Assembly: GCF_003018255.1 (NCBI RefSeq)
Contig: NZ_CP027440.1
Direction: 5' to 3' (one strand)
From: Escherichia coli
Lineage (GTDB): Bacteria > Pseudomonadota > Gammaproteobacteria > Enterobacterales > Enterobacteriaceae
DNA: 64,000 nt
Part shown: positions 1-60,106 of the stretch, in pieces
Layout of the letters: each line of letters opens with the position of its first letter
How positions within the stretch are numbered: the first letter of the stretch is position 1
Made by a program: the position numbers and the translations under genes
Notes under the pieces: generated by a model
Told to the model about the DNA's origin: nothing
Seen by the model: the letters and a program-made list of their open reading frames with translations, nothing else
Database searches by the model: none

Positions 1-2161
1 TGTTGTCTGGGCGTTGCTTGCCGTCTCACTGGTGCGCCACACCGATGGTACGCCGCTCTATTTTATCGCTCAGATTGAAGACATTAACGAGCTAAAACGC
101 ACCGAACAGGTGAACCAGCAACTGATGGAGCGCATCACGCTGGCTAACGAAGCGGGCGGGATTGGCATCTGGGAGTGGGAGCTAAAGCCGAATATTTTTA
201 GCTGGGATAAGCGGATGTTCGAGCTGTATGAAATTCCTCCGCATATCAAACCGAACTGGCAGGTGTGGTACGAGTGCGTACTGCCGGAAGATCGCCAGCA
301 TGCCGAAAAAGTGATTCGTGATTCGTTGCAATCACGCTCGCCCTTTAAGCTGGAATTTCGCATTGCCGTGAAAGATGGCATCCGCCATATCCGCGCCCTC
401 GCCAACCGGGTACTGAATAAAGAAGGCGAAGTCGAACGCCTGCTCGGCATTAATATGGATATGACCGAAGTGAAACAGCTTAACGAGGCATTGTTTCAGG
501 AAAAAGAGCGCCTGCACATTACGCTGGATTCCATCGGCGAAGCCGTGGTCTGTATTGATATGGCAATGAAAATTACCTTTATGAATCCGGTGGCGGAGAA
601 GATGAGCGGCTGGACGCAGGAAGAAGCGTTAGGTGTTCCGCTCCTGACGGTGTTGCATATTACTTTTGGCGACAACGGACCATTAATGGAGAACATTTAC
701 AGTGCCGACACCTCACGTTCCGCGATTGAACAAGATGTGGTGTTGCACTGTCGGAGCGGCGGCAGCTACGACGTGCATTACAGTATTACGCCGTTAAGTA
801 CTCTGGACGGCAGCAATATAGGCTCGGTTCTGGTGATTCAGGACGTCACCGAATCGCGTAAAATGCTGCGCCAGCTGAGCTACAGCGCCTCCCATGATGC
901 ACTGACGCATCTCGCCAATCGCGCCAGTTTTGAGAAGCAACTACGCATCCTGCTGCAAACGGTAAACAGTACACATCAGCGACATGCACTGGTGTTTATC
1001 GATCTTGATCGCTTTAAAGCGGTGAATGACAGCGCCGGGCACGCCGCTGGCGACGCTTTACTGCGCGAACTGGCGTCATTGATGCTGAGTATGCTGCGCT
1101 CCAGCGACGTGCTGGCGCGACTCGGTGGCGATGAATTTGGTCTGCTGCTGCCAGATTGTAATGTCGAAAGTGCGCGTTTTATCGCTACACGCATTATCAG
1201 CGCCGTGAATGACTATCACTTTATCTGGGAAGGACGTGTACATCGGGTAGGTGCCAGTGCCGGGATTACCTTGATTGATGACAACAATCATCAGGCGGCT
1301 GAAGTGATGTCGCAGGCTGATATCGCCTGTTATGCCTCCAAAAATGGTGGACGGGGCCGGGTGACGGTTTACGAACCGCAGCAAGCTGCCGCACATAGCG
1401 AACGGGCGGTGATGTCGCTTGATGAACAGTGGCGGATGATTAAAGAGAATCAGTTGATGATGATCGCCCACGGTGTCGCTTCGCCGCGGATCCCGGAAGC
1501 GCGTAATTTGTGGCTGATTTCACTTAAGCTCTGGAGTTGCGAAGGCGAGATTATTGATGAACAAACATTTCGTCGTAGCTTCAGCGATCCGGCACTTAGC
1601 CATGCTCTTGACCGACGGGTATTCCACGATTTTTTCCAGCAGGCCGCAAAAGCGATTGCCAGTAAAGGCTTAAGCATCGCCCTCCCCCTTTCCGTTGCCG
1701 GTTTGAGTAGCGCCACGCTGGTGAATGAACTGCTTGAGCAGCTGGAAAATAGCCCTCTACCCCCACGGTTATTACATCTGATTATTCCGGCAGACGCGAT
1801 TTTAGATCACGCAGAAAGCGTGCAAAAACTGCGGCTGGCGGGATGTCGGATCGTATTCAGTCAGGTGGGCCGCGATCTGCAAATCTTCAACTCGCTGAAA
1901 GCGAATATGGCAGATTACCTGCTACTTGATGGTGAGTTATGCGCCAATGTGCAGGGAAATTTGATGGATGAGATGCTGATTACGATCATTCAGGGGCACG
2001 CTCAGCGGCTCGGGATGAAGACCATCGCCGGGCCAGTAGTTTTACCCCTGGTGATGGATACGCTTTCTGGCATCGGCGTCGATCTGATTTATGGCGATGT
2101 GATTGCCGATGCCCAACCGCTGGATTTGCTGGTGAATAGCAGTTATTTCGCGATTAACTGA
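1..2161 (+). CDS. dgcE: Diguanylate cyclase DgcE (YegE), C-terminal portion only; gene begins upstream of the window
   Basis: ORF 14..2161 translation contains PAS-like segments, a GGDEF core (RLGGDEFGLLL) and a C-terminal EAL-like region; open reading frame runs to window edge. Confidence 0.8.
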   Translation, partial: VVWALLAVSLVRHTDGTPLYFIAQIEDINELKRTEQVNQQLMERITLANEAGGIGIWEWELKPNIFSWDKRMFELYEIPPHIKPNWQVWYECVLPEDRQHAEKVIRDSLQSRSPFKLEFRIAVKDGIRHIRALANRVLNKEGEVERLLGINMDMTEVKQLNEALFQEKERLHITLDSIGEAVVCIDMAMKITFMNPVAEKMSGWTQEEALGVPLLTVLHITFGDNGPLMENIYSADTSRSAIEQDVVLHCRSGGSYDVHYSITPLSTLDGSNIGSVLVIQDVTESRKMLRQLSYSASHDALTHLANRASFEKQLRILLQTVNSTHQRHALVFIDLDRFKAVNDSAGHAAGDALLRELASLMLSMLRSSDVLARLGGDEFGLLLPDCNVESARFIATRIISAVNDYHFIWEGRVHRVGASAGITLIDDNNHQAAEVMSQADIACYASKNGGRGRVTVYEPQQAAAHSERAVMSLDEQWRMIKENQLMMIAHGVASPRIPEARNLWLISLKLWSCEGEIIDEQTFRRSFSDPALSHALDRRVFHDFFQQAAKAIASKGLSIALPLSVAGLSSATLVNELLEQLENSPLPPRLLHLIIPADAILDHAESVQKLRLAGCRIVFSQVGRDLQIFNSLKANMADYLLLDGELCANVQGNLMDEMLITIIQGHAQRLGMKTIAGPVVLPLVMDTLSGIGVDLIYGDVIADAQPLDLLVNSSYFAIN

Positions 2162-7971: not shown

Positions 7972-8152
7972 AAGAAATCCTTTCTTAGAGAATTATTGAG
8001 GCCCGGTATCATACCGACTGCAACAATGAAATAAGAGCAAACGAAGAAACTTTCAGAATTAGGCCCGGCGGCGCAGAAAATTTTGCTATTCGCCTCGCAA
8101 GAACGGAGAGCCGTCGATTGACACTAAGGGCGGAGTGACATAATTTCAGGAG

Positions 8153-8300
8153 TGAGGGTTAGGGAGAGGTTTCCCCCTCCCCCTGGTGTTCTTAGTAAGC
8201 CTGGAAGCTAATCACTAAGAGTATCACCAGTATGATGACGTGCTTCATCATAACCCTTTCCTTATTAAAAGCCCTCTTCTCCGGGAGAGGGTTTCCCGTT
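8153..8300 (+). ncRNA. sibA: Sib antisense RNA antitoxin, copy 1 (boundaries approximate)
   Basis: Plus-strand -35 ttgaca 8118-8123, 17 bp spacer, -10 taattt 8141-8146; transcript fully covers ibs ORF; hairpin plus T tract near 8268-8303. Confidence 0.55.
8192..8251 (-). CDS. ibsA: Ibs type I toxin, 19 aa hydrophobic peptide (MMKHVIILVILLVISFQAY)
   Basis: Reverse complement of 8192..8251 reads ATGATGAAGCACGTCATCATACTGGTGATACTCTTAGTGATTAGCTTCCAGGCTTACTAA; SD-like ggaaaggg upstream. Confidence 0.8.
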   Translation of the reverse strand: MMKHVIILVILLVISFQAY

Positions 8301-8487
8301 TCAGCGTCCCGCTGAAATCGTCGGCTTACCTCCTTTCGCCCTGAATGCAGTCTATCGCTAACGCGTGAACAAAATAGTTTCCTCTGTGATTATTGCGTAA
8401 CGACTCGCAAAGAATATTTGCTGGCAGGATCGCAGACTACAAAGCCTGCGGATTGACAATCTTATCGTGAAGGCATAATTTCAGGAG

Positions 8488-8630
8488 TGAGGGTAGAGCG
8501 GGGTTTCCCCCGCCCTGGTAGTCTTAGTAAGCTGGCCAGCTAATAACTAAGAGCACCACGATGATGAGTAGCTTCATCATGACCCTTTCCTTATTTAAGG
8601 CCCCTTCCTCGGGAGGGGCTTTCCCGTTTC
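8488..8630 (+). ncRNA. sibB: Sib antisense RNA antitoxin, copy 2 (approximate)
   Basis: ttgaca 8453-8458, 17 bp spacer, taattt 8476-8481; hairpin ggccccttcctcgggaggggct followed by ttcccgtttc. Confidence 0.55.
8524..8580 (-). CDS. ibsB: Ibs type I toxin, 18 aa (MMKLLIIVVLLVISWPAY)
   Basis: Reverse complement of 8524..8580 gives ATGATGAAGCTACTCATCATCGTGGTGCTCTTAGTTATTAGCTGGCCAGCTTACTAA. Confidence 0.8.
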   Translation of the reverse strand: MMKLLIIVVLLVISWPAY

Positions 8631-8815
8631 AGCGTCCCGCTGAAATCGGCGGCCTACCTCCTTTCGCCATGCAAGCAGTCTATCGCTAACTTGCAGATAA
8701 AATAGTTTCACATGTGATTATTGCGTAACGTCTCGCAAAGAATATTTGCTGGCAGGATCGCAGACTACAAAGCCTGCGGATTGACAATCTAATTGTGAAG
8801 GCATACTTTCAGGAG

Positions 8816-8957
8816 TGAGGGTAGAGCGGGGTTTCCCCCGCCCTGGTAGTCTTAGTAAGCCGGGAAGCTTATGACTAAGAGCACCACGATGATGATCCAC
8901 TTCATCATGACCCTTTCCTTATTTAAGGCCCCTTCCTCGGGAGGGGCTTTCCCGTTT
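8816..8957 (+). ncRNA. Sib-family antisense RNA, copy 3 (approximate)
   Basis: ttgaca 8781-8786, 17 bp spacer, -10-like tacttt 8804-8809; terminator hairpin ending near 8957. Confidence 0.5.
8852..8908 (-). CDS. Ibs-family type I toxin, 18 aa (MMKWIIIVVLLVISFPAY)
   Basis: Reverse complement of 8852..8908 gives ATGATGAAGTGGATCATCATCGTGGTGCTCTTAGTCATAAGCTTCCCGGCTTACTAA. Confidence 0.75.
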   Translation of the reverse strand: MMKWIIIVVLLVISFPAY

Positions 8958-9143
8958 CAGCGTCCCGCTGAAATCATCGGCTTACCTCCTTTCGCCCTGA
9001 ATGCAGTCTATCGCTGACTTGCGGATAAAATAGTTTCACATGTGATTATTGCGTGACGTCTCGCAAAGAATATTTGCTGGCAGGATCGCAGACTGCAAAG
9101 CCTGCGGATTGACAATCGGACCGTGAAGGCATACTTTCAGGAG

Positions 9144-9287
9144 TGAGGGTAGAGCGGGGTTTCCCCCGCCCTGGTAGTCTTAGTAAGCTGGGTAGCTAAC
9201 GACTAAGAGCACCACGATGATGAGTATCTTCATCATGACCCTTTCCTTATTTAAGGCCCCTTCCTCGGGAGGGGCTTGCCCGTTTCA
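9144..9287 (+). ncRNA. Sib-family antisense RNA, copy 4 (approximate)
   Basis: ttgaca 9109-9114, 17 bp spacer, tacttt 9132-9137; terminator hairpin ending near 9286. Confidence 0.5.
9180..9236 (-). CDS. Ibs-family type I toxin, 18 aa (MMKILIIVVLLVVSYPAY)
   Basis: Reverse complement of 9180..9236 gives ATGATGAAGATACTCATCATCGTGGTGCTCTTAGTCGTTAGCTACCCAGCTTACTAA. Confidence 0.75.
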   Translation of the reverse strand: MMKILIIVVLLVVSYPAY

Positions 9288-22529: not shown

Positions 22530-22613
22530 TTAATTTCGATTATTTTTCCCGGATGGAAAATTCTTAGAAACCGATCACATACAGCTGCATTTATTAAGGT
22601 TATCATCCGTTTC

Positions 22614-22700
22614 GCTGAAAAACATAACCCATAAAATGCTAGCTGTACCAGGAACCACCTCCTTAGCCTGTGTAATCTCCCTTACACGGGCTTATTTTTT
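22614..22700 (+). ncRNA. cyaR: CyaR (RyeE) Hfq-dependent small RNA
   Basis: Sequence gctgaaaaacataacccataaaatgctagctgtaccaggaaccacctccttagcctgtgtaatctcccttacacgggcttatttttt matches CyaR as recalled, including terminator hairpin and U tract. Confidence 0.85.
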
Positions 22701-38859: not shown

Positions 38860-38975
38860 CTGCCATAACGTGAAGAAGCAATGACCTGGTGGTCCGTGAC
38901 TTCCCTACGCTGGCATTATCCAGATCAGGTGATACGGGTATTTCTCAGCCTTCACAAAGAAGGGCACCCCGAGTC
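38860..38975 (-). promoter_or_regulatory. TPP (THI-box) riboswitch in thiMD leader
   Basis: Minus-strand sequence ...ctcggggtgcccttct...ctgagaaatacccgtatcacctgatctggataatgccagcgtagggaagtcacggacc... matches the thiM thi-box aptamer as recalled. Confidence 0.85.
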
Positions 38976-39072
38976 GTTTGGTTGCGATAATAAATCGCAG
39001 AGGAGGATGGTAATGTCCAGCGCACGCGTTGTAAACGGGGAAAAACGGCGGTATTACAATCGCGTTAATAAA

Positions 39073-57516: not shown

Positions 57517-57870
57517 ATGATCGTGCAAAAAGAGCTGGTTGCTATTTACGATTATGAGGTCCCTGTACCTGAAGATCCGTTTTCCTTCAGACTTGAGATC
57601 CATAAATGCTCTGAATTATTTACAGGTTCCGTCTATCGACTGGAGCGATTCCGGCTACGTCCAACATTTCATCAACGTGATCGAGAAGATGCTGACCCGC
57701 TAATAAATGATGCGTTGATTTATATAAGAGATGAGTGTATTGATGAGCGGAAATTACGAGGTGAATCACCTGAAACTGTAATAGCAATTTTTAATCGTAA
57801 ACTACAGAATATATTCAACCAACTAATAGAATATTACTTTATTAAAGGGGGAAGCGGTTTTCCCCCTTAG
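57517..57870 (+). CDS. yehK: Small uncharacterised protein YehK
   Basis: 117 aa ORF; its last codons run into the terminator hairpin shared with zorO. Confidence 0.65.
   Translation: MIVQKELVAIYDYEVPVPEDPFSFRLEIHKCSELFTGSVYRLERFRLRPTFHQRDREDADPLINDALIYIRDECIDERKLRGESPETVIAIFNRKLQNIFNQLIEYYFIKGGSGFPP
57844..57867. terminator. Bidirectional hairpin terminator shared by yehK (+) and zorO (-)
   Basis: Stem ggggga/tccccc with loop agcggttt; T-rich on both sides. Confidence 0.55.
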
Positions 57871-57889
57871 TTGCGTTTCAATTTGCCCA

Positions 57890-57979
57890 TTACTTCAACA
57901 AATCAATCAACCGTAACAGAGCCACTAATAGCTCCAGTACAGCAATGAGCACGGTTAACTTTTGTGTCAGCGTGTCCAT
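57890..57979 (-). CDS. zorO: ZorO type I toxin, 29 aa (MDTLTQKLTVLIAVLELLVALLRLIDLLK)
   Basis: Reverse complement of 57890..57979: SD aaggagag, ATGGACACGCTGACACAAAAG...TTGAAGTAA; matches ZorO as recalled. Confidence 0.85.
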   Translation of the reverse strand: MDTLTQKLTVLIAVLELLVALLRLIDLLK

Positions 57980-58160
57980 CCGCTCTCCTTATTAAGGAGC
58001 GCAACACCAGCACCTTACCCTTACACTGCCTGTCGACACTGGTTTACGTTTGTTGAGTCGCCATGTTGCACTCCGGATCAGAGCACTACCTGCGGCACCA
58101 CCCGTCCGGTAGCCAGGACTTGAAATGGGTTCGATCCGGCGCAACTTCCCAACAGTCAGG

Positions 58161-58211
58161 ATTATAAATCTCATTATCTTAATTGCAACACGGTCCAGCG
58201 GTGGTTATAAT
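58161..58211. promoter_or_regulatory. Divergent sigma70 promoters for zorO (-) and orzO (+) sharing one palindromic -35 hexamer
   Basis: + strand: -35 ttgcaa 58183-58188, 17 bp spacer, -10 tataat 58206-58211. - strand: -10 tataat (complement of 58161-58166), 16 bp spacer, same ttgcaa hexamer. Confidence 0.6.
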
Positions 58212-58217
58212 TCGTTC

Positions 58218-58304
58218 GTTGAGATGCCATGTTGCACTATCAGTAACTTAACATCAAAGTAGTAAATAAAAGAACCTGCCTCACCAGCAGGTTCTTTTAT
58301 TTTC
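58218..58304 (+). ncRNA. orzO: OrzO small RNA antitoxin (approximate ends)
   Basis: Starts about 7 nt after tataat; contains gccatgttgcact complementary to the zorO 5' UTR (plus-strand coordinates about 58060-58073); terminator aaagaacctgcctcaccagcaggttctttt plus T tract. Confidence 0.65.
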
Positions 58305-58497
58305 TGCGATCTACTTTCCAGATATTTTTCGCCAATAGCCCACCATAAATATTCACATCCCGGCCAAATAGTACGTTGATTATAAAATCGATGAATTTAT
58401 AAATAAAAATGAGTTATATGATGAATTAATAAAAACAGTAATCATTTTATTAAAGGGGGAAACGGTATTCCCCCTTAGATGCGTTTCAATTTGCCCG

Positions 58498-58587
58498 TTA
58501 CTTCAACAAATCAATCAACCGTAACAGAGCCACTAATAGCTCCAGTACAGCAATGAGCACGGTTAACTTTTGTGTCAGCGTGTCCAT
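58498..58587 (-). CDS. zorP: ZorP type I toxin, second copy, 29 aa
   Basis: Reverse complement of 58498..58587 encodes a peptide identical or near-identical to ZorO, with the same SD. Confidence 0.8.
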   Translation of the reverse strand: MDTLTQKLTVLIAVLELLVALLRLIDLLK

Positions 58588-58768
58588 CCGCTCTCCTTAT
58601 TAAGGAGCGCAACACCAGCACCTTACCCTTACACTGCCTGTCGATACTGGTTTACGTATGTTGGTACGAAACGTTGCTCTCCGGATCAGGGCACCGCCTG
58701 CGGCACCACCCGTCCAGCAGCCAGGACTTAAAATTGGTCCGATCCGGCACAACCTCCCAACGGGCAGG

Positions 58769-58819
58769 ATTATAAATCTCATTCACTGAATTGCAATGGA
58801 GTGTGGATATGGTTATAAT
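58769..58819. promoter_or_regulatory. Divergent promoters for zorP (-) and orzP (+), second module
   Basis: + strand: ttgcaa 58791-58796, 17 bp spacer, tataat 58814-58819. Confidence 0.55.
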
Positions 58820-58825
58820 TTATTC

Positions 58826-58909
58826 GTTGGTACGAAATGTTGCACAATCAGCAAGTTAGCGTCATTGTAGTAAATAAAAGAACCTGCCTCACCAGCAGGT
58901 TTTTTTATT
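58826..58909 (+). ncRNA. orzP: OrzP small RNA antitoxin (approximate ends)
   Basis: Contains ttggtacgaaatgttgcac, imperfectly matching gttggtacgaaacgttgc in the zorP leader; terminator aaaagaacctgcctcaccagcaggttttttt. Confidence 0.6.
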
Positions 58910-59017
58910 TACTGTGATCTGCTTTCCAGATATTTTTCGCTCAAACAACTAATGCGGCAAACATTTATTGCGCGTAAAATATCGTTTATTTCATTAATAC
59001 ATTTCAGGGATGAATAT

Positions 59018-60106
59018 ATGTCACCGCAGAATAATCATCTGCAGCGTCCGCCTGCCGCTGTGTTATACGCCGATGAACTGGCAAAATTAAAACAAAATGA
59101 TCACGCACCTTGCCCGCCCGGTTGGCAGTTAAGTTTGCCTGCGGCCCGCGCTTTTATCCTTGGCGATAGCGCGCAAAATATTAGCCGTAAAGTCGTGATC
59201 AGTCCCTCCGCTGTCGAACGCATGTTAGTCACTCTCGCTACCGGGCGCGGTTTGATGTTGGTGGGGGAACCTGGCACCGCAAAATCGCTCCTGTCTGAAT
59301 TACTGGCAACCGCTATTAGCGGCGATGCCGGGTTAACCATCCAGGGCGGCGCATCTACCACCGAAGATCAAATCAAGTACGGCTGGAACTACGCCCTGCT
59401 TATCAACCATGGTCCGTCAACGGAAGCGCTGGTCCCTGCCCCGCTTTACCAGGGAATGCGCGACGGCAAAATTGTCCGTTTTGAAGAGATAACGCGTACA
59501 CCGCTGGAAGTACAAGACTGTCTGTTAGGTATGCTTTCTGACAGGGTAATGACGGTGCCGGAACTCACCGGTGAAGCCAGTCAGCTCTATGCGCGAGAAG
59601 GCTTTAATATTATTGCCACTGCCAATACCCGCGATCGCGGCGTCAATGAGATGAGTGCCGCGCTAAAGCGTCGCTTCGATTTTGAAACCGTCTTTCCGAT
59701 TATGGATTTCGCCCAGGAGCTGGAACTGGTCGCCAGTGCTTCGGCGCGTTTGCTGGCCCATAGCGGTATTCCGCATAAAGTGCCTGACGCGGTACTGGAG
59801 TTACTGGTCCGCACCTTCCGCGATCTGCGTGCCAACGGCGAAAAGAAAACGTCAATGGATACCCTGACGGCAATTATGTCCACCGCTGAAGCCGTGAACG
59901 TGGCCCACGCAGTGGGCGTCCGCGCCTGGTTTTTAGCGAATCGCGCAGGTGAGCCAGCCGATCTGGTGGACTGTATTGCCGGAACCATCGTCAAAGATAA
60001 CGAAGAAGATCGCGCTCGTCTGCGCCGTTACTTCGAACAGCGAGTCGCCACACATAAAGAAGCTCACTGGCAGGCTTATTATCAAGCTCGCCACCGCCTG
60101 CCGTGA
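59018..60106 (+). CDS. yehL: MoxR-type AAA+ ATPase YehL
   Basis: ORF 58952..60106; start placed at ATG 59018 (MSPQNNHLQRPP...); Walker A GEPGTAKS, Walker B-like IVRFEEI. Confidence 0.8.
   Translation: MSPQNNHLQRPPAAVLYADELAKLKQNDHAPCPPGWQLSLPAARAFILGDSAQNISRKVVISPSAVERMLVTLATGRGLMLVGEPGTAKSLLSELLATAISGDAGLTIQGGASTTEDQIKYGWNYALLINHGPSTEALVPAPLYQGMRDGKIVRFEEITRTPLEVQDCLLGMLSDRVMTVPELTGEASQLYAREGFNIIATANTRDRGVNEMSAALKRRFDFETVFPIMDFAQELELVASASARLLAHSGIPHKVPDAVLELLVRTFRDLRANGEKKTSMDTLTAIMSTAEAVNVAHAVGVRAWFLANRAGEPADLVDCIAGTIVKDNEEDRARLRRYFEQRVATHKEAHWQAYYQARHRLP

Follow-up and report, generated by a model that had tools for sequence, protein, structure and literature searches.

Between yehK and yehL, the Escherichia coli DNA analyzed here (a 64,000-nucleotide stretch, referred to as the window) carries two similar units in tandem. 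The question raised by this arrangement is whether the site holds one toxin–antitoxin module twice or two modules of different specificity, and what its presence says about the source strain. The 57833..59017 region is almost certainly an intact two-module zor–orz type I toxin–antitoxin locus at its canonical yehK–yehL site. The system is known and much studied in E. coli, and the version in the window is intact, ordinary, and widespread.

Two tandem units and their specificity types

The units appear as two pairs of direct repeats, 57833-58132 with 58441-58740 (300 nt, 92% identity) and 58202-58332 with 58810-58940 (131 nt, 86% identity), each pair spaced by 608 bp (Table 1). Annotated genomes, used for comparison, identify the neighboring genes as yehK and yehL. 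The first ~38 nt of unit 1 are shared with the 3' end of yehK. In every genome inspected, the zor toxins and orz small RNAs (sRNAs) carry no RefSeq/PGAP annotation.

Table 1. Features of the zor–orz locus and its flanks, in window coordinates
Feature	Position	Strand	Basis or remark
yehK, 117-aa variant, left flank	57517..57870	+	ORF list; annotated homologues
Tandem unit 1, zorQ/orzQ-type	57833..58440		608-bp repeat register, unit alignment, type assignment
G+C-rich hairpin AAGGGGGAAGCGGTTTTCCCCCTT, unit-1 zor mRNA 3' end/terminator	57845..57868		Terminator-like site, inverted repeat
Unit-1 toxin ORF, 29 aa	57890..57979	-	Equals ZorO; not the A20S "ZorQ" variant
Unit-1 RBS AAGGAG	57990..57985 (+164..+169)	-	Inside palindrome CUCCUUAAUAAGGAG
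Unit-1 zor 5' UTR, 174 nt	57980..58153	-	TSS 58153 inferred by homology
OrzQ target, unit-1 leader +82..+102	58052..58072	-	20/21 pairs with OrzQ +1..+21
Unit-1 EAP, +73..+102	58081..58052	-	Register of published EAP
Unit-1 divergent promoter block	58161..58211		zor -10 58166..58161 (-); orz -10 58206-58211 (+)
OrzQ-type antitoxin sRNA, ~85 nt	58218..58302	+	Rfam RF02083 OrzO-P, 90.2 bits at 58225-58298
Tandem unit 2, zorO/orzO-type, including yehL-proximal flank	58441..59017		Repeat register and unit alignment
Hairpin, unit-2 zor mRNA 3' end	58453..58476		Inverted repeat and alignment
Unit-2 toxin ORF, 29 aa, ZorO	58498..58587	-	ORF list and exact-sequence look-up
Unit-2 RBS	58598..58593	-	Within the unit-2 zor leader
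Unit-2 zorO 5' UTR, 174 nt	58588..58761	-	TSS 58761 inferred
OrzO target, unit-2 leader +85..+102	58660..58677	-	18 continuous pairs, one G·U at Orz +13
Unit-2 EAP	58689..58660	-	Register of published EAP
Unit-2 divergent promoter block	58769..58819		zor -10 58774..58769 (-); orz -10 58814-58819 (+)
OrzO antitoxin sRNA, ~85 nt	58826..58910	+	Rfam RF02083, 88.9 bits at 58833-58906
yehL, 1089 nt, right flank	59018..60106	+	Annotation of 13P477T and others

Both toxin ORFs encode the same 29-aa peptide, MDTLTQKLTVLIAVLELLVALLRLIDLLK, which exactly matches the UniProt entry "Small toxic protein ZorO, ZORO_ECO57". The peptide has a GRAVY of 1.4 and a hydrophobic core, LTVLIAVLELLVALL; NCBIfam offers no model for it. 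In both units, the Shine–Dalgarno (SD) sequence AAGGAGAG lies 5 nt upstream of the ATG. On the opposite strand, each unit encodes an sRNA that matches the Rfam OrzO-P family along the whole model (1-76/76; gathering score 60), with E-values of about 1e-14. These two matches, together with a peptide identical to a named UniProt entry, place the features of the locus far beyond chance. The Rfam alignment and the fold display G+C-rich hairpin and T-run terminators for both sRNAs, the stem-loop of the OrzQ-type RNA spanning 58264-58302. An identity as ohsC (RF02495) was rejected: its match scored 35.4 bits against a gathering score of 50 and is overlapped by the stronger OrzO-P match. The sub-threshold Rfam matches to ohsC, STnc370, ncr1015, and reverse-strand OrzO-P (25 bits) reflect the common terminator hairpin.

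Each unit has its own pair of divergent promoters. Specifically, the plus strand carries TTGCAA-N17-TATAAT at 58183-58211 and 58791-58819, the minus strand TTGCAA-N16-TATAAT at 58188-58161 and 58796-58769, every promoter agreeing with the consensus at 10 of 12 positions. The palindromic -35 hexamer TTGCAA is common to zor and orz (58183-58188 in unit 1, 58791-58796 in unit 2). The hexamers equal the EDL933 elements given in Table 3 of a published survey (PMC11264685). These results bear out much of the first-pass annotation of this DNA, which had placed two tandem ~608 bp modules between yehK and yehL, recognized them as Zor–Orz type I toxin–antitoxin modules, and credited each with a hydrophobic 29-aa minus-strand peptide behind a strong SD and with a divergent sRNA possessing its own promoter and intrinsic terminator. 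That annotation also took the modules to be duplicated ZorO/OrzO, a description that suits unit 2 and, as recounted below, misses unit 1.

The differences between the units concentrate in the recognition region. Judged by sequence, unit 2 is of the zorO/orzO type: its GTTGGTACGAAATGTTGC is identical to that of the O157:H7 unit, its V1 is GAA, and it shares 98.2% identity over 492 nt with the O157:H7 zorO/orzO unit. The window OrzO departs from the O157:H7 allele at the single base 58865 (T/C). Unit 1, by its recognition sequences, is of the zorQ/orzQ type, the third published type. With +1 inferred at the G of GTTGAGATGCC, its V1 (+9..+11) reads GCC; the same numbering reproduces the published V1 of OrzO (GAA) and OrzP (ACG). 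The unit-1 recognition sequences are distinct from those of the O and P types, and both its Orz GTTGAGATGCC and its target GTTGAGTCGCC also occur in the A20S-encoding units of O103:H2 CEC12044 and ECL27829. The Q label is thus assigned through co-occurrence, elsewhere, of these sequences with the ZorQ A20S protein variant; the unit-1 peptide itself has A20, not S20. Neither unit is of the zorP/orzP type (V1 = ACG, OrzP 5' end GTTGGAACACG), and therefore the locus is not the O–P pair of EDL933.

Target recognition and predicted insulation of the modules

Each sRNA is complementary to the leader of its own toxin. In the OrzQ cognate duplex, written 6(1)14, six base pairs precede the A·A mismatch at +7; a G·U pair at +8 and 13 further bp complete the helix. 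The 18 continuous pairs of unit 2 agree with the published zorO–orzO complementarity of 18 nt (PMC3919570). The 13-nt core gccatgttgcact, which had been proposed to match sRNA to toxin leader, is confined to unit 1, where the sRNA carries it at 58226-58238 and the leader copy lies at 58060-58072; in unit 2 that proposal does not hold, and recognition involves GTTGGTACGAAATGTTGC in the sRNA (58826-58843) and GTTGGTACGAAACGTTGC in the leader (58660-77). Published work sets the functional cut-off at ≥15 continuous pairs or ≥17 with one internal mismatch (PMC3919570, PMC11264685). Both cognate pairs lie above these values, unit 1 with 20 pairs as 6(1)14 and unit 2 with 18 continuous; having 14 continuous pairs, the Q pair does so under the "discontinuous" criterion only. 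Its mismatch at +7 adjoins +9, a position critical in OrzO.

Duplex energies computed with RNAduplex separate the modules. The unit-1 target yields -37.6 kcal/mol with its cognate OrzQ versus -25.0 kcal/mol with OrzO, and the unit-2 target -34.0 kcal/mol with OrzO versus -23.4 kcal/mol with OrzQ. With cognate duplexes at -34 to -38 kcal/mol and cross duplexes at -23 to -25, the two modules are expected to be mutually insulated; because the recognition sequences differ between the units, each Orz should be limited to its own zor and repress that toxin alone. A search of the literature returned no expression, toxicity, or rescue experiments on this strain or on any Q-type unit, and we infer that the Q-type unit acts as the O-type unit does and is insulated from it.

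Leader structure and proposed mechanism

The transcription start sites assigned at 58153 and 58761 reproduce what is published for zorO, namely an RBS at +164..+169, a 174-nt UTR, and an EAP at +73..+102 (PMC5397157). The predicted unit-1 transcript, from 58153 to 57845, is 309 nt long, as compared to a published zorO transcript of ~310 nt (PMC3919570). On the opposite strand, the extended frame of yehK covers the hairpin at the 3' end of this transcript.

By analogy with zorO–orzO of EDL933, each module would produce, from a sigma-70 promoter, a minus-strand mRNA of ~309 nt in which a leader of 174 nt precedes the frame for the 29-aa, putatively membrane-active ZorO. The SD would be locked by a local hairpin, and in the full-length RNA the 5' ~22 nt would pair with the +73..+102 EAP region. 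Loss of the first 28 nt would free the EAP, which could then act as a ribosome standby site for translation. The back-to-back promoter, with its common palindromic -35, would yield the ~85-nt plus-strand Orz, and pairing of Orz with the EAP target would block standby loading and bring about RNase III-dependent decay. Toxicity and RNase III-dependent, Hfq-independent rescue by Orz are established for EDL933 zorO–orzO only (PMC3919570), and structure probing for the O-type leader (PMC5397157). The window itself shows the identity of the sequences, their membership of the family, their potential for base pairing, and their genomic context; toxicity, dependence on RNase III, Δ28 processing, and opening of the EAP are carried over from the EDL933 O-type module and presumably apply here.

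Thermodynamic folding speaks to parts of this scheme. RNAfold gives the unit-1 RBS a P(unpaired) of 0.21-0.22, with 0.07-0.22 for the SD hairpin over the folds. In the full-length minimum free energy (MFE) structure of unit 2, +1..+22 pair with +74..+102, and constraining the 5'-end:EAP fold costs nothing (ddG 0.0). Removal of the first 28 nt lifts the predicted P(unpaired) of the EAP from 0.31 to 0.41 in unit 2; in unit 1 it does not increase (0.27 before, 0.25 after), and there the 5'-end:EAP fold is predicted to lie 5.4 kcal/mol above the MFE. The folds thus recover the reported opening of the EAP only weakly, which we do not count against it.

Distribution, array origin, and alternative readings

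At least 80% of the region is present in 3,390 of 5,426 complete E. coli genomes (about 63%). For comparison, the published survey reports one copy in 25% and two copies in 42% of 2,212 genomes (PMC11264685). Among the 5,426, the 63 nt of the unit-1 Orz occur exactly in 855, the O type in 1,261, and the window OrzO allele exactly in 139; the P unit, found in 4,696, is near-universal. Published work restricts zor–orz to E. coli/Shigella (PMC3919570). The closest genome by direct BLAST is that of the pig isolate 13P477T, with 99.91% identity over 4,501 nt and 1 difference inside the locus. That match disposes of a rare or recombinant allele, a reading suggested by an apparent maximum of 97.4% versus 99.4% in the flanks, which came from off-register HSPs joined and averaged across the repeat. 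The same Q–O array occurs in 13P477T, 08-00022, and M23314, and NT1F10 carries Q–O–P. The first-pass annotation had taken the locus to be absent from K-12 and the source to be EHEC-like or of another non-K-12 lineage. K-12 indeed lacks zor, but its yehK–yehL gap still contains an intact orzP and the promoter that serves it, along with the initial stretch of the zor leader; the survey describes this remnant as the expressed OrzPmg and finds orz alone in about 30% of genomes (PMC11264685). Because the region occurs in ~63% of genomes and the nearest one is from a pig isolate, the EHEC-like inference fails. The wider notion of another non-K-12 lineage holds, but trivially.

On the 3' side of the unit-2 Orz terminator, sequence of the internal-spacer type gives way to the P-unit/yehL-proximal type. 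Recombination within the conserved 3' stem-loop of Orz probably removed the P unit from a Q–O–P array and left the Q–O array. More speculatively, with a likelihood we put a little short of even, yehK–yehL is a three-slot orthogonal array of fixed order Q–O–P, with the smaller arrays as deletion derivatives and with an address block that diverges while cis-repression is kept. Recombination in the ~45-nt invariant Orz 3' stem-loop would produce the derivatives Q–O, Q–P, O–P, O, P, and orzP-only. The specificity block would be EAP +90..+98, looped out when the leader 5' end pairs with the blocks on either side of it, GCAAC (+85..89) and CAAC (+99..102). Being looped out of the 5'-end:EAP pairing, the address block could diverge freely, so that the trans-address would shift with cis-repression kept. 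The survey text, in the part available, gives types and copy numbers (PMC11264685); the fixed order, crossover point, and structural rationale were not found there.

Known systems provide the frame for these comparisons. The zorO–orzO/zorP–orzP locus of EDL933 reportedly goes back to Fozo 2010. It was studied further by Wen, Won & Fozo in 2014 (PMC3919570) and by Wen, Harp & Fozo in 2017 (PMC5397157). It shares with the window the yehK–yehL site, the 608-609-bp unit design, the promoters, the 174-nt leader with SD hairpin and EAP, and the ZorO peptide, and its zorO/orzO unit, with the 18-nt pairing, matches unit 2. In EDL933, however, the order is O then P (ZorP = T3S), whereas the window has Q upstream of O and no P, an OrzO one base different, and a 117-aa yehK extending across the zor terminator hairpin. 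The zorQ/orzQ type, the third in the survey (PMC11264685), is linked to unit 1 through units that encode the A20S variant and agree with unit 1 in Orz 5' end and in leader target; the window peptide is ZorO rather than A20S. K-12 MG1655, with its OrzPmg, shares the gap, the promoter block, and the Orz 3' stem-loop, and the downstream flank of unit 2 is of the K-12/P type; MG1655 has orzP and a short zor leader stretch, while the window lacks a P-type Orz and carries both of its modules in full. As in zor–orz, the tisB–istR1, shoB–ohsC, and dinQ–agrB systems use a divergent sRNA that pairs far 5' of a sequestered RBS, activation by 5' processing, and a single site at which antitoxin and standby ribosome compete (PMC5397157). 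Their peptides and RNAs are different, and they are single-copy, with no orthogonal-specificity arrays.

Other readings of the two units deserve weighing. The modules could be functionally redundant, either Orz repressing either zor, such that duplication raises dosage only. Identical ORFs, repeated parts that are 86-92% identical, and the 16 of 21 in-register positions that can pair in cross combinations all fit such redundancy, which we nonetheless consider distinctly unlikely: most of the divergence falls in the recognition block, and the cross pairs contain 5 mismatches in +1..+21, 4 of them internal, including V1 +10/+11, with longest runs of 7-9. The cross duplexes are, moreover, weaker than OrzP with zorO (-29.5 kcal/mol), a combination that does not rescue experimentally (PMC3919570). 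Tandem repeats are prone to mis-assembly, but that the duplication is an artefact of a single-copy locus is scarcely credible, given units that differ at 8-14% of positions, coordinated differences in sRNA and target, and the same two-unit array in several independent complete genomes.

With two insulated modules as the favored reading, there is still the issue of whether they work, and at what. A decaying relic, with one or both modules lacking expression or function, would accord with how commonly the locus suffers loss, orz being all that is left in K-12 and in about 30% of genomes (PMC11264685), and with the absence from the window of the near-universal P unit. It is very unlikely, as both units keep promoters, SD, an ORF identical to the toxic reference, full-length Rfam matches, terminators, and cognate complementarity exceeding the published thresholds, and as an independent isolate, 13P477T, differs by one base across the locus. 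The Orz RNAs or the array might instead chiefly serve another role, for example trans-regulation of other mRNAs, with the toxin secondary. Conservation and expression of OrzP in K-12 without zor, and a reported increase in aminoglycoside MIC by multicopy zor–orz (both PMC11264685) lend this idea some appeal. We regard it as unlikely: the window contains no pointer to further targets, and wherever a full unit was sampled, the 5' end of Orz varies together with its leader target, a pattern that speaks for selection on toxin control.

What the locus means for E. coli biology is circumscribed. Presence or absence of zor–orz units is of no use as an EHEC marker and is uninformative on pathotype, and significance beyond correct annotation is little. 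Because RefSeq/PGAP leaves the toxins and sRNAs without annotation, flagging them is useful curation, and the locus represents a natural Q+O pair for testing sRNA–target orthogonality.

An intact zor-orz locus between yehK and yehL

The yehK–yehL gap carries an intact member of the well-characterized zor-orz family (toxin gene zor, divergent antitoxin sRNA Orz) at its canonical site. Both plus-strand RNAs are full-length matches to Rfam OrzO-P (RF02083), at 90.2 and 88.9 bits against a gathering score of 60, and for the peptide an identical public-database entry exists, "Small toxic protein ZorO, ZORO_ECO57". The first-pass annotation named the family correctly, and the tandem 608-bp units, 29-aa minus-strand ORFs, divergent promoters, terminators, and yehK/yehL flanks are present as it described. 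The system is already known; our refinements concern the recognition types (Q plus O, i.e., zorQ/orzQ plus zorO/orzO, rather than O plus zorP/orzP), a K-12 remnant, and withdrawal of the inference of an EHEC-like source.

Start-to-start spacing is 608 bp in both direct-repeat families of the locus. In each unit, AAGGAGAG precedes the ORF, and consensus-like promoters (10/12 matches) lie back-to-back: TTGCAA-N17-TATAAT rightward and TTGCAA-N16-TATAAT leftward. A single palindromic TTGCAA is the -35 element of both. Polymerase occupying one promoter should block access to its opposite, so within a unit the starts of toxin and antitoxin transcription may exclude each other. Rightward transcription terminates at a G+C-rich hairpin of at least 12 bp followed by a T-run (Rfam alignment and fold). 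With zor starts set 7 nt past each -10, all experimentally mapped EDL933 zorO landmarks are reproduced: RBS +164..+169, a 174-nt 5' UTR, the EAP leader segment at +73..+102, and an ~309-nt transcript (PMC5397157; PMC3919570). [quoted passage not shown] When Orz is numbered from the G of GTTG, the O157:H7 comparison locus yields the published V1 (Orz +9..+11), GAA for OrzO and ACG for OrzP.

Features of the locus and other RNA features of the window
Feature	Position	Strand	Remark
Direct repeat	57833-58132 / 58441-58740		300 nt, 92%
Direct repeat	58202-58332 / 58810-58940		131 nt, 86%
Unit-1 toxin ORF, 29 aa	57890..57979	-	encodes MDTLTQKLTVLIAVLELLVALLRLIDLLK
Unit-2 toxin ORF, 29 aa	58498..58587	-	encodes MDTLTQKLTVLIAVLELLVALLRLIDLLK
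Putative zor starts, units 1, 2	58153, 58761	-	
Shared -35, units 1, 2	58183-58188, 58791-58796		
Putative Orz +1, units 1, 2	58218, 58826	+	
yehK	57517-57870	+	comparison with annotated genomes
yehL	59018-60106		comparison with annotated genomes
Sib array	8118-9251	+	four Sib RNAs
CyaR/RyeE sRNA	22612-22697	+	100.7 bits; ordinary E. coli feature
TPP riboswitch	38885-38981	-	71.2 bits; ordinary E. coli feature

Here yehK is a 117-aa variant, compared with 105 aa in K-12 and O157:H7 and 106 aa in O104:H21. Its last 12 codons (ending YYFIKGGSGFPP, stop) cross the opposite-strand zor terminator hairpin at 57845-57868. Strains 13P477T, 08-00022, and M23314 share the variant, which RefSeq labels "hypothetical protein". 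Elsewhere, directly upstream of an mdtABCD/baeSR-sized operon, lies a second tandem type I toxin–antitoxin array, of Sib RNAs (Rfam RF00113, 137-150 bits) spaced 335, 328, and 328 bp. Opposite each is a minus-strand, 18-19-aa Ibs-type ORF (MMKHVIILVILLVISFQAY, MMKLLIIVVLLVISWPAY, MMKWIIIVVLLVISFPAY, MMKILIIVVLLVVSYPAY). K-12 presumably has two copies at this site, sibA and sibB.

Two recognition types and their pairing

Alignment of both units to their O157:H7, NT1F10, and K-12 counterparts, and classification of 18 comparison loci by recognition sequence, give three recognition types. In unit 2, Orz GTTGGTACGAAATGTTGC and target GTTGGTACGAAACGTTGC pair without a break over 18 nt, one of the pairs being a G·U at +13. 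This pairing is the published 18-nt complementarity of zorO/orzO, and by its sequence unit 2 is of that type. In unit 1, Orz GTTGAGATGCCATGTTGCACT (V1 GCC) faces target GTTGAGTCGCCATGTTGCACT, pairing at 20 of 21 positions: 6 bp, then A·A unpaired at +7, followed by G·U at +8 and a further 13 bp. Units of O103:H2 CEC12044 and ECL27829 that encode the A20S "ZorQ" peptide have these same sequences. By this co-occurrence proxy, unit 1 belongs to the third type, named zorQ/orzQ in a 2024 survey (PMC11264685), although its own peptide is the ZorO sequence and not A20S. Thus, of the two ZorO/OrzO modules first proposed, unit 2 stands and unit 1 is reassigned; the proposed 13-nt core gccatgttgcact holds for unit 1 but not for unit 2, which uses another recognition sequence. 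Typing the recognition sequences of both units revealed no zorP/orzP unit in the locus.

Published thresholds for function are 15 or more continuous pairs or, where a single internal mismatch occurs, 17 or more; each cognate pair clears them. In the cross pairs, 5 mismatches fall within +1..+21 (4 internal), and the longest runs span 7-9. RNAduplex energies are -37.6 and -34.0 kcal/mol (cognate) versus -23.4 and -25.0 (cross); as a yardstick, OrzP x zorO, experimentally unable to rescue, gives -29.5. From these figures, we infer that the two modules are insulated from each other. We found no experimental test of the Q-type pairing geometry in the literature.

Leader folding and a divergent address

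Experiments on the EDL933 O-type module show ZorO to be a small inner-membrane toxin whose full-length mRNA is poorly translated because the SD is enclosed in a hairpin and the EAP is sequestered by the 5' end. Once 28 nt are lost, the EAP, which contains GGAGUG/GGAGAG and is probably a standby site for ribosomes, becomes open. Base pairing of the Orz 5' end to the 3' portion of the EAP prevents translation and favors decay that depends on RNase III but not on Hfq (PMC3919570, PMC5397157, PMC11264685). By analogy, the same scheme would operate here. The SD hairpin sequence is CUCCUUAAUAAGGAG, and the hairpin is predicted to be stable in full-length and Δ28 leaders (P unpaired 0.07-0.22); the GGAGUG/GGAGAG motif lies at +80..+85 in both units. 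In the unit-2 full-length MFE, +1..+7, +9..+13, and +15..+22 pair with +96..+102, +85..+89, and +74..+81, and the thermodynamic fold predicts modest EAP opening after Δ28 (P unpaired 0.31 to 0.41). In unit 1, all 17 cis pairs are possible, yet relative to the MFE that fold costs 5.4 kcal/mol, and the model predicts no EAP opening.

In this scheme, the constant blocks GCAAC (+85..89) and CAAC (+99..102) would be contacted by both the leader 5' end and Orz, and the variable block between them would be read by Orz alone. Thus, the address could diverge with cis-repression undisturbed. The zor mRNA 5' end GUUGGGAAGUUGCGCC (58153..58133, -) and the Orz 5' end GUUGAGAUGCCAUGUUGCAC (58218..58238, +) both start GUUG, both carry GUUGC, and can pair with the same two EAP blocks. 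The likeness might reflect mimicry of the antitoxin in cis, or it might be what is left of an inverted duplication around the shared -35.

Distribution and origin of the Q-O array

The flanking DNA is ordinary for E. coli: many strains match it at 99.4% identity across 17.5 kb. Of 5,426 complete genomes, 3,390 carry 80% or more of the region, and 5,231 have some match; zor-orz is thus not EHEC-specific, and the suggested EHEC-like source is not upheld. With the tandem-repeat query, joined off-register pieces depress per-record identity (97.4% reported for the best hit versus a real match of 99.9%), making identity bands unusable. Queries of 63-65 nt from Orz 5' ends count Q in 855 genomes, O in 1,261, and P in 4,696. 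The survey gives one copy in 25%, two in 42%, and orz only in ~30% of genomes (PMC11264685).

Among the sampled loci, arrangements comprise Q-O-P (NT1F10), O-P (O157:H7 and three others), Q-P (six strains, including O104:H21 and O103:H2), Q-O (the window, 13P477T, 08-00022, M23314), O only (FDAARGOS_536), P only (536), orzP only (K-12), and a single Q-like unit (LF82). From yehK to yehL, the order is Q, then O, then P in 19/19 cases. The window and the pig isolate 13P477T differ at 4 of 4,501 bases, within the locus only at 58217. The NT1F10 array (NZ_CP075462.1, 4001-5786) encodes the ZorO peptide in all three units, and yehI there has an internal stop. LF82 (NZ_CP082771.1) joins a Q-type leader target to a fourth Orz 5' end, GTTGGGGCGCCATGTTGCAT, pairing as 6(1)13 (paired run, mismatch, paired run) with two G·U pairs, one at +5 and one at +20; its yehK is frameshifted.

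The locus had been called absent from K-12. The toxin is indeed absent, but the K-12 gap keeps orzP, its promoter block, and the start of the zor leader, a remnant published as the expressed OrzPmg (PMC11264685). Unit 2 is O-type through the Orz terminator; from 58911 onward (…TTTATTTACTGTGATCTGC…) it matches the sequence that follows OrzP beside yehL in O157:H7 and K-12, and unit alignment finds no match to the spacer after internal OrzO. A P-type flank after an O-type unit fits derivation from a Q-O-P array, from which the P unit would have been lost through a crossover inside the invariant stretch 58867-58910.

The zor ORFs and Orz sRNAs are unannotated by RefSeq/PGAP in every comparison genome inspected ("none" under the match). 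Standard annotation is systematically blind to this locus, which, with the insulation predicted here, would be a natural orthogonal Q/O pair.
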